The notes under the pieces: generated by a model | Databases searched by the model: none | Told to the model about the DNA's origin: nothing | Seen by the model: only the letters and a program-made list of their open reading frames with translations | Position numbers and translations under genes: made by a program | In this document: positions 1-26,053 of the stretch, piece after piece | How the letters are laid out: each line of letters opens with the position of its first letter | Position numbering within the stretch: the first letter of the stretch is position 1 | Assembly (NCBI GenBank): GCA_046563655.1 | Contig: CM102286.1 | Location: 12,090,001 to 12,154,000, forward strand | Direction: 5' to 3' | Length of the DNA stretch: 64,000 nucleotides | Source: Yuukianura sp. NJ FZ-2021 | Taxonomy: Eukaryota

Positions 1-51
1 TTCAAATTTTGTACTTTCCTGTTGACGATGTTCCGTAAAAAAAATAGAAGT

Positions 52-1260
52 ATGGAAGAAACAACAGAAGACATTGAGGCCAAGTTGCGACATGGACTAC
101 ATCAATGGCCATCAATGTCTAATGCAGAATTGGACGCTTTTGGTAAATGACATTGGGGAGAATGCATATTTCAAATAACGCTTTCATTTTTTTTTGTTTT
201 AAAAGACTCAGAAATCCAACGGATTTTATCGGTGGACTTGCACGAAGATTCACAGAGCCTCCATGATGCTGAAGCGAAACTTTCCGCTAATCAGATGAAG
301 ATCATTCAATTATTCAAAGGCGAAGGTCAAGACCAAGAGGGAGGCAGGTTAGGCAAGTTGCGTTGTTGGCTGCGCAGTATGAAACTCAAATTTACGAGAA
401 ACTGGCCACAATCCAATGGAGTCATGTATGTCTCGACGCTGTTTGGGTTCAATGTCGTTTGGAACAAAGCTGTGTGCGAAGAAGAGTACTTTCGAATTGT
501 AAGAGCTTTTTCTATAACTACATCTCAAGATAATAACAAATTCGATTTTTCTACAATTGGCTAATGTTAAAATATGTATCAGCTTAACGTAATGGCAATG
601 GAGGCAATGCCAGGGAGTGACTTCATTTCCTCCCACTTAACAATGGTTCGCGTTGCTAGTGCTTTGCGGTGGTGGTGCCCTATAGTTCCAGATGTAGTCG
701 ACGAAGCGTTCGGGTTTCTCTCATGGAATATTGAAGCGTCTCCCCACGAACGCTTCTCAGCTAAACAACGCGGAGCAGTTCTGAACGTCGAGAAAGGAGT
801 GTTGATTAGTGTTTGCTCCACGGGCGTCGACTTTCAAGTGACAACATTTGACCATGGATCGTTTTCTCTCGCCAAAGAAACTGCACAAGGAGGTGAAAGT
901 TTTATTGAAACGATTTTTTTGTGGGGTTTCTCAAATGAGTTTTAAATTTTAGTCCTTGAGAAATTCAAGTCAGCGATTGCAAAACTGGGGAAGATCCATG
1001 AAAAGACGCTGCAGGGTTTCCGCATCCGTGTCAAGCTTTGCAAAGAAGCGCAACAATGTATCTCTTTGAAGGACATTCCAGAAGTAACGATGCAATCAGC
1101 TCTGCCTCATAAGGCAAACTACAGCGAAGTCGTCGAATTTTCGAGAGTTTTAGCCGCTGCTGATGAATCACAAATTGAAAAGGAAAAGCGATTACTGCTC
1201 AAGAAACTTTCAAAATTTATGACGAAAGAAGAACAGCAGCAAGAAAATCAGTCCATGTAA
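52..1260 (+). CDS. Uncharacterised protein, about 333 aa, 4 exons (52-142, 206-498, 583-892, 953-1260); may be 5'-incomplete
   Basis: GT-AG introns of 63, 84 and 60 bp with compatible phases join ORF-track pieces 232..564, 574..945 and 1066..1260 into one frame (MEETTEDIEAKL...QQQENQSM*). AATAAA near 1323. An AG at 47-48 could be an upstream acceptor. No family recognised. Confidence 0.75.
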
Positions 1261-1868: not shown

Positions 1869-3307
1869 ATGGAATCCGAAACATTTCAAAAGGTCGAACT
1901 TGCAGAAAGCAACAACGAGCCTCTTCATAAAAAAGTCAAAACAGCAGGCGCAGGCGGCGATACTGAAACGGCGAATGGAGAGGACTCTAACGGTGTAATC
2001 GTAAAGACGTACCAGCTGAATCATTTTGGACACATTGAATTTAAGCAGATTTTGAGTAACAGCGTCGACTTCAAACGAGTTACGGTTGAGGGAACATATA
2101 AAGGCGACACCGCTGTGATCATACTGGACAAAAAGCCTTTCACGGAGGAAGGCCTGAAGACTACTTTTTTTTCTGAAAAGTCTGGACTTACACTTCTATT
2201 TCAAAACGATATTTACGGCAGCTACAACTGTTTGCCTGAAGAACAAGCAGCAGGTGAATGAATTAATGCGCTCTTACTTTCGTACCAGTAAGAAGCGACC
2301 ACTCAATTAATAGCCGATCTTTTTATTACAGAAATCAAGGCAACTGTTATTGCGCCAGCTACTCAAAAGCATATCGACAAATACAAGTTTTCTCAGTTGT
2401 ACTTTGTTGAGGAAACTCCGGAGTTGTACGAAAAAGTGACTCTTCCGTACTTGGAATCCACTCGTTTCAGCGTCGATGTATGTTTTTCGGTTTCATTGTA
2501 GGAATAGTCATGCAGAATCCGTGTTTGGATTGATAACATGTCGCTCTTTTTTTCTAGTGGGTTTATAACGTTCTTGAACATAAGAAAGAGGCAGAAAGGA
2601 TCGTTTTTGAGGACCCTGATCTCAAAACAGGATTTATTCTTGCCCCAGACTTGAAGTGGGACGGGAAGTCAATTGAAAATTTATATCTAACAGCAATCGT
2701 TCACCGAAGAGATATCAAGTCCATCCGGGAGCTTACAGCTGAGCATTTGCCACTTTTGGAAAACGTTTTGGAGCAGGGAACGGTGAGTGGACACGGGTGG
2801 GTAGATAGTAGTCAATCCCAATATTCCCAATAAGCTTTATTTCGTTTTGGAGTTCGTATTCGGACTTCGAAATTCACAATTATCATTTATCACGTGAGGT
2901 CACCAACTTCTTATGAATGTTTTCGTTTGTTTTAGAAAGCGATTGTTGAAAAGTACGGTGTAAAGCGGAGCCTACTTCGTGTTTACTTTCACTACCAGCC
3001 ATCCTATTATCATCTTCACGTACATTTCAACAGTGTCCAAAACCAAGTTGGAGGTAACGCTCAATCAGTTTACACCAAAAGTAAATGATGTTACAGACAC
3101 GAGTCATGAAAATGCCACAGGCCTATTTTATAATGTAATATTTGTTTGCATGCAGGAACATTTACCGAGAAAGCCCACCTTTTGAGGACGGTGATAAATA
3201 ATCTCAAGCGCGATAGTTTGTATTACGCCGAAGCGACGATCCCGTTCGTCGTAAAAGAGTGCGAACCTCTCTACAAAAAACTTGTGGAGTATGGCTACCA
3301 ATTCTGA
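1869..3307 (+). CDS. DCPS: m7GpppX diphosphatase (scavenger mRNA decapping enzyme), 5 coding exons (1869-2253, 2332-2477, 2558-2782, 2936-3053, 3156-3307)
   Basis: The spliced protein has [61 protein letters not shown] and the HIT motif [13 protein letters not shown]. All introns are GT-AG and in phase. Stop TGA at 3305-3307. Confidence 0.95.
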
Positions 3308-5462
3308 ATCACCTACTTCCACTACATTCATATCATCACCTACGTCCTCCCCTACTGATGTAGAAGAAGCCGCCACTGGTGTGGTAGAACCCACCACCGC
3401 TAATACAGAAAAAACAACTGCAGAAGAACCCAGCACCACTGTAGATGAACCGACCAATATAGAAGAACTCAGCAATTCAGAAGAACCCAGCAATTCCGCA
3501 GAACACATCACTATGGAAGGGCCCACCACCATTACCATTTACCAAGAATCCAACGAAGACCCTACCACCACAGAAAAACCCACCACTACAGAACAATCTA
3601 CCAGCACGCAAAAACCCCCCATTACAGAAGAATCCACCACTGTAGAAGAACCCACCAATACAGAAGTACTCAGCACCACAGAAGACTGCCCAATTATAAA
3701 AGACCCCCCTACATCCGAAGCACCCACCACCATAGTAGAACCCCCTGTTACGGAGGAACCCTCCATTGCAGAAGTACCCACCAACACAGAACAACCGACA
3801 ACTTCAGAAGAATCTACAACCACAGAACAACCCACCACTTCACAAGAAGCTACCAATAAAGAAGAACTCATCACTGAAGAACCCATCACCAAAGAACCCG
3901 CCACTGAACAACGTATCACTGAAGAACCCATCGCTGAAGAGCCCATCACTGAAGAACCCATCACTGAAGAACCTATTACTGAAGAACCTATTACTGAAGA
4001 ACCTATCACTGAAGAACCCATTGCTGAAGAACCCATCACTGAAGAATCCATCGCTGAAGAACCCATCACTGAAGAACCCGCCTCTTCAGCCGAAGCCACG
4101 GCTACTGATACAGAAGAACCCACCACTTCGGAGGAACCCAGCACTACAAAAGTAGCCGCCATTACTGACAACCAAGAAACCGCCACCACCAACGATTTTA
4201 ATTCAATCCTGGTTTTTGCCGAGTATCTTCCGAGACTTAGCATTTTGAACCTTTTTGTTACTTCCAACGAAACTGCCGCAGACTCCAGCGTCACCGTACT
4301 GAATGACACTCAAACATTAGCACTAACTAAACCTTCACTCTTCTGTCACTTCAATGATATTGCCTTTGATTGCAGTTGTCCCATTACAGCATGTCATTTC
4401 AATCAGTTTCCAAACACCCGTCACTTCCGCTTGGTGACTGAACCCCTCAATTGTACTGCAGGATCTTCTTCTATGGAACTCTTAAACCTTCGCTTGGAAT
4501 CACAAGATCAAACCTTCATGCGGTTGTTTCACTCTTCCCAGAATCCATTATCTCTTGAAGAGAATCAAGATTATTCACTTCACTGTCAAAACTGCAACTT
4601 CATTTTACGAGAAGGCGCCATTTTCAAAAAAATTCGTCAAGTTCCTTCCGATGGATGGGAAGAGAGAGCCAACGAGTATTGGTTCTGCCACCCACCGGAA
4701 CCCAATGATTTGGATTCACACTGCGTCTCCAAAGAGATGCAGTCGGAATCCAAACCTGACACTGGCGATTCAGTTACTGAGTCCTTGGAACAATTAACCG
4801 TTGACGAACCACCAGCTTCCGATATTTTTCAATTGATGTCAAATCCAGAAAACTCTATTTGTCTATTCGGGCCCACCTATTGGATACTCAACTCAACCGG
4901 CTTACTAATTAATCGGGATGACGACATTGCAAATTGTGGGAACTGCCAGCAAGAATTGGGCTTCTTCTTGTCCAAGCATTCCGTTCAAATATGGAATTTC
5001 GGGGTTTATTGGACTGGAGGTAGAGAGGACATTTCTACTTCATTGTCAAGCCCAACTTTGGACTTTCGCAGAATTGTATTTTCTTTACTTCGGGAAGCCA
5101 GTACTTCAATAACTCAAATTCTGCTGAAATCAGTTGATCGTGACAAGGTCATCTTCCTCTGGATTTGGGACACAGACGCTGATGTTCTCGTGGGAATAGA
5201 AGATGAAGAGGAAATTGGAGACGGACCTGGAATTTTGCACATGGAGAAGCGAAAAGGTGTCAAGCTCTTGTACAAAATTCTTCCTGGAGAGCTGGATTCC
5301 GGAAATATGGACGTGGATATGGAAATCACTGTCCCGAGAAACGTTGCTGATGCGGCTCTGGATACCATTTTGAGAACTCCCGTCACCATGAACTGCAAGG
5401 TTCCTTCTACGGGCAAAGTTCAGACTGAGATTCAACTCGAATGCGGATATCTCTTGTATTAA
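3291..5462 (+). CDS. UBE3D: Intronless 723-aa ORF: about 300-aa acidic Thr/Glu/Pro-rich repeat region followed by a UBE3D/Ipa1-like (HECT_2 family) domain
   Basis: First ATG is at 3291. The C-terminal half shows VFAEYLPRL, a CxxC (LHCQNC), the signature RQVPSDGWEERANEYWFCH (cf. LPSENW.E...W.CH), a second CxxC (CGNCQQELG) and a KLLY motif. ATTAAA near 5503. Confidence 0.8.
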   Translation: MATNSESPTSTTFISSPTSSPTDVEEAATGVVEPTTANTEKTTAEEPSTTVDEPTNIEELSNSEEPSNSAEHITMEGPTTITIYQESNEDPTTTEKPTTTEQSTSTQKPPITEESTTVEEPTNTEVLSTTEDCPIIKDPPTSEAPTTIVEPPVTEEPSIAEVPTNTEQPTTSEESTTTEQPTTSQEATNKEELITEEPITKEPATEQRITEEPIAEEPITEEPITEEPITEEPITEEPITEEPIAEEPITEESIAEEPITEEPASSAEATATDTEEPTTSEEPSTTKVAAITDNQETATTNDFNSILVFAEYLPRLSILNLFVTSNETAADSSVTVLNDTQTLALTKPSLFCHFNDIAFDCSCPITACHFNQFPNTRHFRLVTEPLNCTAGSSSMELLNLRLESQDQTFMRLFHSSQNPLSLEENQDYSLHCQNCNFILREGAIFKKIRQVPSDGWEERANEYWFCHPPEPNDLDSHCVSKEMQSESKPDTGDSVTESLEQLTVDEPPASDIFQLMSNPENSICLFGPTYWILNSTGLLINRDDDIANCGNCQQELGFFLSKHSVQIWNFGVYWTGGREDISTSLSSPTLDFRRIVFSLLREASTSITQILLKSVDRDKVIFLWIWDTDADVLVGIEDEEEIGDGPGILHMEKRKGVKLLYKILPGELDSGNMDVDMEITVPRNVADAALDTILRTPVTMNCKVPSTGKVQTEIQLECGYLLY
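3869..4080 (+). repeat. 15-bp coding minisatellite (ATCACTGAAGAACCC)n encoding (ITEEP)n, about 14 units, inside a wider degenerate EEP(T/S) array (about 3360-4190)
   Basis: Directly visible tandem units with synonymous and ACT/GCT variants. Confidence 0.95.
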
Positions 5463-5730
5463 GACTTATTTTTTGCATTGTTTGAATCGTTTTGGTATAT
5501 TGATTAAAAACATCAATGTTAAATATCCGAAATAGTCGATTAACATGCGGGGTTTTTGTTTGTTTTTCGTTATGGAAAAGTTTTTTTTTTCAGAAGGAAA
5601 GTTTGCCTGTGGTTTGGTTTGGATAGTTTGGAAAGGGAATGGGAAGGTGTAAACTTTTTATAAAGTTGTCTGTCACTTGAGTTTTGTGTATGTATGAGTT
5701 TCGCTATTCGGTCATTCAGTTTTCAAGTTC

Positions 5731-8700
5731 ATGATTGGACGGACTCTGCCTTTCTGCTTCTCCTCCACTCTACGTTTCCGTCAATTCTTTTGGTCAACAT
5801 TGCAGCACTCGACAATGGCACCAGTCCCAAGTCATTATGATTATTTGGTTATCGGAGCTGGATCGGGTAAGCACTTTATTCATTGATTTAAAAACGTATA
5901 CCTCATCTACTCCGAATGAAATAATCTTTAAGGACGGGTAAGAGGCAGCGTTTGTTTACGATTTGGTGTCAGCCATTGTCATTAGCAACAAAGCAAAATC
6001 ACTGCTCAAACTTGCAAAAGTCGGCACTGTTTCCAATGATTGACAAACCGAAGTTTTTCGCAGGATAGGAATTCAAACAACCTGGGACTCAACAACAACC
6101 TTGTGCCCATGGAAACGGTTGATTTCGGTGCCGATATTTGCAAATTATTGAATAATGTCAGAATTACATCTCTTTTGTCTTATAACTTTTTTATTATAAG
6201 ACCTAAAAATGCGTGTAAGGTGTCTAAAAATCCGGAAGACCATGGCGCATAATAGTTAGGGGCCAATTTCCAAATTTTTTGTGTCATACAATACTTATAC
6301 AAAATTGAACCTTTGTATCGGATTTTTAGTATCATTCAGCAGCAAGAAGTCAAATTCTGACGCCTAATAATTATTCTACGAATATCAAGGAATTTTTAGA
6401 GCCATTGCACAAATTTCTAGGTGATTCCTGTGAAGACTTATTAAGCCTGAAAGTTAATTAATTTGAGGCAAAACGAGACCCACCGTTGCCATGTCTTATT
6501 CCTTCTTAAGTCCAAACAGAAACAGATTAACCGTAATGTAACTACGCCAGTTTTTTGTAGGCGGGATTGCCAGTGCACGACGTGCGGCAGAATTTGGTGT
6601 CAAGGTAGCTGTTATTGAATCTGGACGATTAGGCGGAACTTGTGTAAGTATATTGATTCAATATTATTGAATATGGACCACCCTTGTAGTTGTATCCTTG
6701 TATCGGATATCGGATCACTAACATTTTCGTGTTTTTTTTTTCCTTTTGATTTCAGGTAAACGTGGGATGTGTACCGAAAAAAGTAATGTTTTATGCATCG
6801 AATTTGCGAGAACATGTTCACGATTACAAGGGCTATGGATTTGACGTACAACTTAATGGATTTGATTGGGGGTGAGACTGAGAGTGCATTCGATTCGTAA
6901 AATGGAAACGTTTTTTAGTAATGGTGGAGAATAATGTATTTTTAATTCTTCTAGTAAACTAAAAACCGCCAGAGATGCGTACATTACTCGTCTGAACGGG
7001 ATTTACGGAACGAATTTGAGTAACTCGAAAGTGGAGTTGTTCCGAGGAGCTGCAAAATTCGTCGGTAAGTCAGCTTGTGTTAGCATGGTAATGATACTTG
7101 AAGCGGTTCCATGTCATAGCGGCCGGATTAAAAGCTGTCAATCCAATAACTGCCGATGGCAAAACCAGTCGAAGTTAAGGAAAAAGGTTGTGAAAAAACT
7201 CAAATTGGTTGTTAATTTAATTAATCAAATTCTAACTGAAAATCCTAAACTAGGCTACATTAATTAACCTAACCTACTTATTTAGCTTAAGTAATTCTAA
7301 CACTCGCCGCGTTGGTATCGGCCCCTTTTGGTTCGGCTACTATACCTGCCAGACCTGAAGCAATTAACTATACATTATATATGTACTTGTATTTGTATTA
7401 TGATTTTTATAGGTGATCATGAAGTTGAAGTGAACGATACGCGTATTACTGCTAAACACATCCTGATTGCCACGGGCGGTTATCCACGTATCCCCGAAGA
7501 TATTCCTGGGGCAAACTTCGGGATTTCCAGTGACGGATTCTTTGAATTGGAGAAACTACCAGAGTAAGCCGTATACTTTATTCTCATGTCATTGTTTTTT
7601 AAAAAAAACTTTGCATCAACTCGTAGAACTGTCTGCGTCGTTGGAGCTGGATATATTGCGGTAGAGGTAAATTAAAACCCCATTCTAGTCTTTCTCTTAT
7701 TTAGTTTTTGTAAATGGGAAGGCAAATGCTTTTCACCTTAGTACTTAAGCTACCGTACCGTACTGTGCTACAGTACGGAAACAATGATATTTCTACAGTA
7801 TAGTTTGTTTTATTATAGTTGGCAGGTATCCTTCAGTCTCTCGGCTCGAAAGTGACAATGGTTATCAGAGGGAAGCAAGTGTTGAGGACATTTGATACGC
7901 TTATCAGCGACAAAGTTACGGAGAACTTGGAACAAAGCGGTATAACAATCAGAAAGGAATCACTGGTGAGGTTTCTTTAGGAATCATCTTAAAATCTACT
8001 TGAAGAAGGTGAATTAGTATTGCAAAATATAACCTCTTTTTTAGGTCACTGAAGTCAAGAAAGGTGATGGCGAAAAATTGACAATTTCAACCAACCATGG
8101 TCTACTCGAGGCGCCAGTGGATTGCTTGATCTGGGCAATCGGGAGGGATCCACACGTTGATATTGGACTAGAAAAAACAGGAATCAAGCTAGATGCAGAA
8201 CGTCACATCATCGTTGATGAGTAAGCATATTTAAAATAACACTGAGACGTTATATAAATTGTCAGATAGCAAAATAATTGTTTTCTGGTGAAGATTCCAG
8301 AACACCTCTGTGCCTAACGTGCATGCCATTGGAGATGTTTGTGGGAAGTGGCAATTGACCCCTGTAGCAATTGCCGCCGGCCGAAGACTGGCTCATCGTC
8401 TATTCAATGGTGAAACGAACCTGAAGCTCTCCTATGACCAAATTCCAACAGTGATATTTTCTCATCCACCAACTGGGACTGTGGGAATGAGTGAAGCGGA
8501 GGCACGTAGCAAATACGACAAGGTCAAAGTCTATTCCAGTGCTTTCGTCCCAATGTACTTTGCAATGTCGGAACGGAAAGTCAAAACGTACATGAAGGTC
8601 ATTTGTCAAGGAGATGACGAGAATGTCGTTGGCCTCCACATGATTGGAATGGATTGCGACGAAATTCTTCAAGGATTTGGAGTGGCAATTAAGATGGGAG

Positions 8701-25970: not shown

Positions 25971-26053
25971 GTGGCTATGGCTGAGCGGTCTAAAGCGATA
26001 GACTAGAAATCTATTTCCCTCTGGGAGCGTAGGTTCGAATCCTACTAGCCACG
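25971..26053 (+). tRNA. tRNA-Ser(AGA): tRNA-Ser, anticodon AGA
   Basis: Acceptor stem GTGGCTA/TAGCCAC, discriminator G, anticodon arm ATAGA-CT AGA AA-TCTAT, long variable arm TCCC-TCT-GGGA, T arm GTAGG-TTCGAAT-CCTAC, and an oligo-T Pol III terminator from 26059. Confidence 0.95.

Follow-up and report, generated by a model that had tools for sequence, protein, structure and literature searches.

Overlapping DcpS and UBE3D genes in Yuukianura sp. as a candidate dicistronic unit translated by leaky scanning

The DcpS and UBE3D genes

We analyzed a stretch of 64,000 nucleotides (nt) from Yuukianura sp. NJ FZ-2021 (assembly GCA_046563655.1, contig CM102286.1, positions 12,090,001 to 12,154,000 of the forward strand; the whole stretch is hereafter called the window), in which a gene for the scavenger decapping enzyme DcpS is followed on the same strand by a long open reading frame (ORF) of the UBE3D family. 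The UBE3D start codon lies inside the DcpS coding sequence, 17 nt before its end. The window is eukaryotic by sequence, with 37% GC and short introns bounded by GT..AG. An initial annotation had proposed that one mRNA serves both proteins, which is now the best reading of the locus, given the conserved overlap, a near absence of ATGs from the spliced DcpS coding sequence, and the contexts of the two start codons. The features concerned are as follows.

1869..3307, plus strand: DcpS gene, 5 exons, 341 amino acids (aa), delimited by GT..AG borders and translation
1869-2253, 2332-2477, 2558-2782, 2936-3053, 3156-3307, plus strand: DcpS exons, from GT..AG borders
1869..1871, plus strand: weak-context start codon of DcpS, preceded by T at -3 and followed by G at +4 (cccttgATGgaa)
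1975..1998, plus strand: stray ATG with a 7-codon ORF, out of frame, C at -3, the sole ATG between both starts in the spliced mRNA
3291..5462, plus strand: UBE3D ORF, 723 codons plus stop (5460-5462), start ATG with A at -3 and G at +4
3291..3307, plus strand: dual-coding overlap of 17 nt, YGYQF and stop in the DcpS frame, MATNSE in the UBE3D frame (+1)
3354..4079, plus strand: in-frame coding minisatellite, repeated in tandem with unit lengths divisible by three (21, 18, 18 and 15 nt)
3513..3515, plus strand: second in-frame ATG of UBE3D (Met75), the sole alternative start 5' of the domain, A at -3 and G at +4
3855..3860, plus strand: AATAAA inside the UBE3D ORF, the only canonical hexamer able to end a separate DcpS mRNA
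4221..5366, plus strand: HECT_2 (UBE3D/Ipa1-type) domain, residues 311-692, Pfam PF09814, E 4.1e-26
5503..5508, plus strand: ATTAAA, 41 nt 3' of the UBE3D stop

The upstream gene matches PF05652 (DcpS) over exons 1-2 and PF11969 (DcpS_C) over exons 3-4, and the translation of exon 4 contains the histidine triad HLHVHF; with both domains and the triad, it is by profile a member of the HIT-family DcpS enzymes. Among named sequences, two models from the springtail Orchesella are nearest to the predicted protein (61-64% identity, the next best reaching at most 56%). The protein lacks internal methionine (Met) and has the C-terminus EYGYQF, its last codons reading GAG TAT GGC TAC CAA TTC TGA with the stop at 3305-3307. 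A strong splice acceptor at 1851, 17 nt 5' of the DcpS ATG, together with candidate donors at 1560 (GTGAGT, directly after 1511-1559) and 1731 (GTAACT), suggests an intron in the 5' untranslated region of DcpS.

In the UBE3D frame no stop occurs from 3255 until 5460-5462, and the first ATG is at 3291-3293. The predicted protein consists of an N-terminal MATNSE, a coding repeat of about 300 residues rich in T, E and P, and the HECT_2/UBE3D domain, which matches profile positions 1-349 of 369. Conserved Cys pairs and a WFCH motif are present, invariant C, W and H columns are common to the window protein and seven relatives, and the nearest protein-atlas clusters are all HECT_2. By these domain features, the 723-codon ORF is a member of the UBE3D/Ipa1 (HECT_2) family. 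Both family assignments of the initial annotation therefore agree with the Pfam matches, and the overlap geometry it gave (DcpS stop, ATG in the +1 frame, 17-nt overlap, frame open from 3255) is read directly from the sequence, as is its statement that a single further in-frame Met precedes the domain (residue 75, at 3513).

The minisatellite lies between the six conserved N-terminal residues and the catalytic domain and has units of the types EEPIT and TTEEPT. Over 310 codons the ORF frame is free of stops, versus 9 and 21 stops in the other forward frames. Differences among the 15-nt units comprise 9 synonymous and 10 non-synonymous changes, a synonymous share above the expectation for neutral drift, so translation of the repeat is most likely, probably as a disordered acidic linker. 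A HMMER search over 1.84 billion representative proteins found 30 UBE3D relatives of 202-474 aa, none of them a fusion, and in the full-length ones the domain starts at about residue 14-34. The insertion of about 300 aa occurs in 0/30 and is thus lineage-specific. A word-index homologue search with the UBE3D ORF was empty at candidate lengths of 397-1266 and 227-723, which we read as a miss of the index because the HMMER search over representatives found these 30.

As the initial annotation had stated, no poly(A) signal lies between the two ORFs, and the next canonical hexamer after the DcpS stop is the one at 3855, inside the UBE3D ORF. The ATTAAA at 5503 is likely the shared poly(A) signal of DcpS and UBE3D.

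Conservation of the overlap and its reading frame

Related DNA was available from one locus of a metagenome (L001), and all comparisons at the DNA level are between this locus and the window. Genome and viral contigs searched with UBE3D and with DcpS exon 3 yielded no further related DNA. A second metagenome match (L002) was dropped as spurious, having 69% GC, 51 matched UBE3D residues and 0/10 matches to the other queries. In L001, a DcpS gene of five exons with the intron positions of the window gene (61% identity, 209/344 aligned positions) is directly followed on the same strand by a UBE3D ORF of 438 codons, 36-38% identical to window UBE3D. Here the UBE3D ATG is at 2173 and the DcpS TGA at 2187-2189, giving an overlap of 17 nt. 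Gene order, frame and overlap length are therefore identical in the two loci, and the check that the initial annotation had proposed, whether relatives keep the overlap and its frame, has come out positive in L001. Synteny is limited to the DcpS-UBE3D pair, as the flanks differ. The best protein match to window UBE3D (P0001) is the L001 ORF itself and for this reason does not count as independent evidence.

Within the overlap, window and L001 have a single difference, which leaves UBE3D unchanged (synonymous) and replaces Q with E in DcpS. All five DcpS third codon positions in the overlap are identical, versus 12/44 in the rest of the last exon (hypergeometric P ~0.003, by our own arithmetic). 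The latter figure indicates that synonymous sites between the two species are essentially saturated, and by this measure the conservation of the overlap is beyond chance. The UBE3D-frame E and P just 3' of the DcpS stop are also kept in L001, where no further ATG occurs between the ATG at 2173 and the conserved domain. Conservation of the overlap and the lack of another L001 start before the domain together argue that selection acts on the +1 frame beginning with this ATG. The start at 3291 assigned in the initial annotation is upheld: with its overlap and N-terminus kept in L001, this comparison shows it to be the real UBE3D start, the sole one that retains the conserved N-terminus. The fixed 17-nt spacing is best seen as lock-in by dual coding, and would not in that case be a coupling device.

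The overlap also appeared to leave traces in protein databases. The Orchesella cincta and O. dallaii models (P0040 and P0035), both named m7GpppX diphosphatase, are automatic predictions of one protein chain, 740 and 794 aa long, with both DcpS and HECT_2, and are the only fused forms seen. The place where DcpS meets HECT_2 is not the same in the two, and back-translation of the O. cincta junction peptide can yield YGYEF and a stop in the other frame. Because the junctions differ and one of them back-translates to a normal DcpS end and stop codon, we read these fusions as prediction artefacts of the same overlap; they look like mis-fusions of two overlapping genes. For annotation, DcpS and UBE3D should be kept separate, unlike in these two models.

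The Orchesella models bear on whether DcpS and UBE3D could be joined into a DcpS-linker-UBE3D fusion protein, a possibility that the initial annotation had raised. Such a protein would require either a +1 frameshift at TTC-TGA-A or the removal of a short stretch by splicing. The heptamer TTCTGAA is identical in window and L001, two Orchesella models are indeed fusions, and L001 contains a 52-nt GT..AG candidate (2140-2191) in the right phase. However, dual coding already explains the identity of TTCTGAA, and the last sense codon inferred for relatives varies (UBE3D residue 5 being S, C or F). A UUC in the ribosomal P site is unable to re-pair in the +1 frame. Antizyme-type +1 shift sites read UCC UGA U, the site here is TTC TGA A, and neither a conserved shift site nor a downstream structure was found: 101-nt folds 3' of the junction had z-scores of -1.16 in the window and +0.64 in L001, with no structure common to both. 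Splicing fares no better, as a crude splice-site filter rejected all 100 phase-correct GT..AG pairs of the window, and none of these matches any of the 12 in L001. The Orchesella junctions behave as expected of artefacts, and all 30 relatives from the representative search have the size of unfused proteins. The other slippage site that had been suggested, AAA-AAA-C, reads TAC AAG AGT in L001 and is not conserved; a -1 shift at this heptamer would, moreover, fail to bring ribosomes into the UBE3D frame. We consider a fusion product highly improbable, and this part of the initial annotation is not supported.

Among the eight close UBE3D relatives that retain an N-terminus, seven open with six residues (MATNSE, MATNSK, MDTNCK, MDTCSN, MDTNFN, MATFCN and MATSSK) whose codons could also encode YG[YHF]xx and a stop in the -1 frame. 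One of the seven is P0001, the L001 ORF, and the exception is P0006. The same compatibility was found in 0/18 distant relatives and in 25/732 Met hexapeptides taken as background. Since these relatives are akin to each other, the count of seven out of eight is suggestive and carries no probability; on these N-termini, it suggests that the DcpS-UBE3D overlap reaches beyond the window and L001.

Among DcpS homologues, P0064, P0068, P0071 and others of about 680-710 aa combine the DcpS domains with an HD-type phosphohydrolase (PF12917, PF13023). By domain content this is a different, natural DcpS fusion in another lineage.

ATG depletion, start contexts and the route to UBE3D

We examined the distribution of ATGs along the spliced DcpS coding sequence, in which the window has ATGs at positions 0, 106 and 1009 only and L001 at 0, 259 and 991 only, the last of each being the UBE3D start. 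Between the two starts there is thus one ATG per 1009 nt in the window and one per 991 nt in L001. L001 DcpS, like window DcpS, is without internal Met, and its stray ATG lies at another place than that of the window, out of frame with C at -3 and opening a 3-codon ORF. In shuffles that keep each DcpS protein and its codon usage, out-of-frame ATGs averaged 5.5 for the window (P 0.0035) and 4.8 for L001 (P 0.0145) when synonymous codons were exchanged, and 9.2 (0/2000 as low) and 8.0 (P 0.001) when codon order was shuffled (n = 2000), versus one observed in each species. Control densities were 16.1 (window) and 16.0 (L001) ATGs per kb in the UBE3D domains and 10.6-21.1 per kb in three other long window ORFs. 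The DcpS introns are rich in ATGs, with 13 in 413 nt (window) and 11 in 530 nt (L001), or 21-31 per kb, so that the depletion is confined to the mature-mRNA sequence of DcpS. This ATG desert in the DcpS message of both species is a new observation.

The start codons differ in context in the same way in both loci. The L001 DcpS start (ccatcaATGtct) has T at -3, as in the window, and in both loci the UBE3D AUG is flanked by A at -3 and G at +4. Leaky scanning is expected to show few AUGs between the first and second start and a suboptimal first context followed by a good one, and both are found here, the 5' exon structure of the window being presumed. In L001, the counterpart of the candidate 5' untranslated intron has its donor at 467 and its acceptor at 602, 3' of a TATAAA at 359, and the candidate first exon downstream of this TATAAA is ATG-free.

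A weak first AUG, about 1 kb that is almost free of AUGs, and then a strong AUG form a diagnostic set that points to leaky scanning. We therefore favor, with a probability of roughly 0.55, the reading that the DcpS-UBE3D pair is a conserved dicistronic unit in which UBE3D would be made by leaky scanning on a shared mRNA. One capped, spliced mRNA would bear both ORFs, and the majority of 40S subunits would initiate at the DcpS AUG. As this AUG lacks a purine at -3, a fraction of 40S would continue scanning across about 1 kb of exonic sequence kept nearly AUG-free and would give UBE3D by initiating at the AUG of 3291, the first strong one, which lies 17 nt before the DcpS stop. Both ORFs would then lie on one mature mRNA, and scanning ribosomes may be the selective force against AUGs in the DcpS exons. 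The initial annotation had instead named termination-reinitiation or +1 slippage as the mechanism. An ATG-poor first ORF is needed for neither, so neither is supported by the desert, and with the weak first and strong second start the evidence shifts to leaky scanning.

Under termination-reinitiation, ribosomes would end DcpS translation at 3305-3307, back up 14 nt and restart at 3291, tying UBE3D output to the translation of DcpS. Stop and start do lie within 17 nt of each other, a spacing that is kept in L001 and compatible with the N-termini of seven of the eight relatives, and overlaps of this size occur among viral overlapping ORFs that use reinitiation. TURBS-type reinitiation relies on a UGGGA motif complementary to 18S rRNA within ~100 nt upstream of the junction; however, exon 5 of neither window nor L001 contains TGGGA or GGGA. 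No stable structure is common to the two, the 141-nt junction stretch having z-scores of -2.97 (window) and +0.74 (L001). Reinitiation after an ORF of 341 codons is normally very inefficient, which also weighs against it here, and it would give no reason for the ATG depletion or the weak first AUG. In antizyme, a sense codon is followed by UGA at the frame change, and in caliciviruses stop and start are a few nt apart. DcpS-UBE3D resembles these types in its TTC-TGA frame change and in the closeness of stop and start, but differs in having no conserved shift codon, stimulatory structure or UGGGA and in giving UBE3D its own conserved strong AUG. On this balance, reinitiation at the junction appears very unlikely.

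Alternatively, DcpS and UBE3D could be separate overlapping transcription units, with a UBE3D promoter whose start site lies in or just before DcpS exon 5. The DcpS mRNA would then be polyadenylated within the UBE3D ORF or extend across that ORF without translation of it, and the overlap would persist because it cannot be undone without damage to one of the genes. A clean, short leader is possible, as neither 3152-3290 of the window (a 139-nt ATG-free leader) nor the whole of L001 exon 5 contains an ATG, and each UBE3D ORF has one canonical poly(A) hexamer inside it, at 3855 in the window and at 2529 in L001. In Drosophila, monocistronic transcripts for one or both genes are reported at 114 of 159 dicistronic loci (PMC4528330). 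However, separate units leave both the ATG depletion across exons 1-4 in the two species and the weak context of the DcpS AUG unexplained. The internal hexamers of window and L001 lie at non-homologous places, and a start site in the last DcpS intron, with its 6 (window) or 7 (L001) ATGs, would produce an AUG-loaded leader. We regard two independent units as somewhat unlikely. By eye, the last intron contains a TATA-like run in the window and a DRE-like TATCGATG in L001, neither common to both.

An operon resolved by spliced leaders was rejected, since the UBE3D ATG lies inside the DcpS coding sequence and no single pre-mRNA could give both mRNAs by this route (spliced leaders themselves were not searched for).

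Several points weigh against leaky scanning on a shared mRNA. DcpS is generally poor in Met, and 7/60 homologues of full-length size are without internal Met, so that the in-frame part of the desert is weak by itself. The idea of ATG depletion was formed post hoc, after viewing the sequence, and the DNA comes from two species. The acceptor at 1851 could join the donor at 1560, in which case a start further upstream would add an in-frame ATG at 1535 (A at -3, G at +4) and an ATG at the splice junction; a strong ATG at 1535 would weaken the argument from a weak first AUG for the window. The Orchesella models have two internal Met in their DcpS parts, and a springtail-like DcpS fragment (P0042) ends in SGYLF and a stop, with no room for an ATG at the same place. 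Finally, the dicistronic loci of Drosophila are described as mostly having monocistronic transcripts too (PMC4528330).

Relation to known dicistronic loci, and neighboring features

Cellular dicistronic mRNAs of animals are known chiefly from Drosophila, and the route to the second protein is for the most part unexplained. In Drosophila stoned (stnA/stnB) and Snapin, the second cistrons are reported to be translated by context-dependent leaky scanning, as shown experimentally, and the first ORFs are described as lacking in-frame internal Met codons (PMC2978622); the source study is Wall et al. 2005, as cited in PMC3372440. Like these, DcpS-UBE3D is an arthropod gene pair with two long ORFs, the first of which has no in-frame internal Met. 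It differs in that its ORFs overlap by 17 nt in different frames, that out-of-frame ATGs are depleted too, and that it is known here from sequence alone. At this level, the locus has the features of the stoned/Snapin class. In Bombyx mori, the downstream ORFs of the tricistronic uENF1-uENF2-PP mRNA are likewise reported to be reached by leaky scanning set by start context (PMC2978622). Unlike DcpS-UBE3D, the Bombyx ORFs are short cytokine precursors of which the first keeps one internal Met, whereas the first ORF here is a 341-codon enzyme.

Overlap between neighboring genes has precedents as well. FlyBase is reported to list 159 dicistronic pairs and 18 gene pairs with out-of-frame overlap of their coding sequences, mostly of <40 nt, and 26/36 genes of the overlapping pairs are on polycistronic transcripts (PMC4528330). 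DcpS and UBE3D resemble these pairs as same-strand neighbors with a short stretch read in two frames. The two names do not occur in 12 supplementary files of that study (File 1 lying outside this search). Green-algal bicistronic loci, which are described as long conserved, have a weak Kozak-like context at the first ORF, a strong one at the second and few AUGs before the latter, and leaky scanning was tested there by mutation (PMC11892635). The same diagnostic sequence set is present at DcpS-UBE3D, although the algal loci belong to a different kingdom, usually have a short first ORF and have their ORFs split by a short spacer. In the literature searched, no paper links DcpS with UBE3D (the names co-occur in unrelated work only) and none pertinent to dicistronic genes in Collembola was found; the gene pair is new to that literature.

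A broader proposal is that DcpS-UBE3D is an ancient, obligate bicistron of springtail-like hexapods, in which the two proteins, driven by one promoter, would be made at a fixed ratio set by how strong a single start codon is, and both mRNA-end functions would be coupled. We consider it unlikely as a whole. UBE3D/Ipa1 is reported to be linked to CPSF73/Ysh1 (PMC7236606, PMC9385686, PMC11904178). If the proposal is true, cap clearance after 3'-5' decay and control of the level of the 3'-end endonuclease CPSF73 would be functionally coupled, and few leaky-scanning tracts in cellular animal mRNAs would match the AUG-free enzyme ORF (~1 kb) in length. The locus raises the idea that DcpS and UBE3D may need co-expression; a functional "mRNA-end pair" of the two is speculation. 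The combination of a 17-nt dual-coding overlap and a first ORF free of AUGs over ~1 kb makes this a clean case that can be diagnosed by sequence alone, and both persist despite the saturation of synonymous sites between the two species.

Upstream of DcpS, a multi-exon gene on the plus strand (window 1-1260) ends with a TAA at 1258-1260, followed by an AATAAA at ~1322; three of its exon ORFs had no Pfam match. Downstream, about 350 nt past the UBE3D stop, the next gene on the plus strand (5815-8000) matches Pfam Pyr_redox and Pyr_redox_2 and is by these profiles a pyridine nucleotide-disulphide oxidoreductase of the glutathione/thioredoxin-reductase type; synteny with L001 does not extend to this gene. 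The sole Rfam match at gathering level in the window is as follows.

25971-26053, plus strand: tRNA gene, Rfam RF00005, 63 bits

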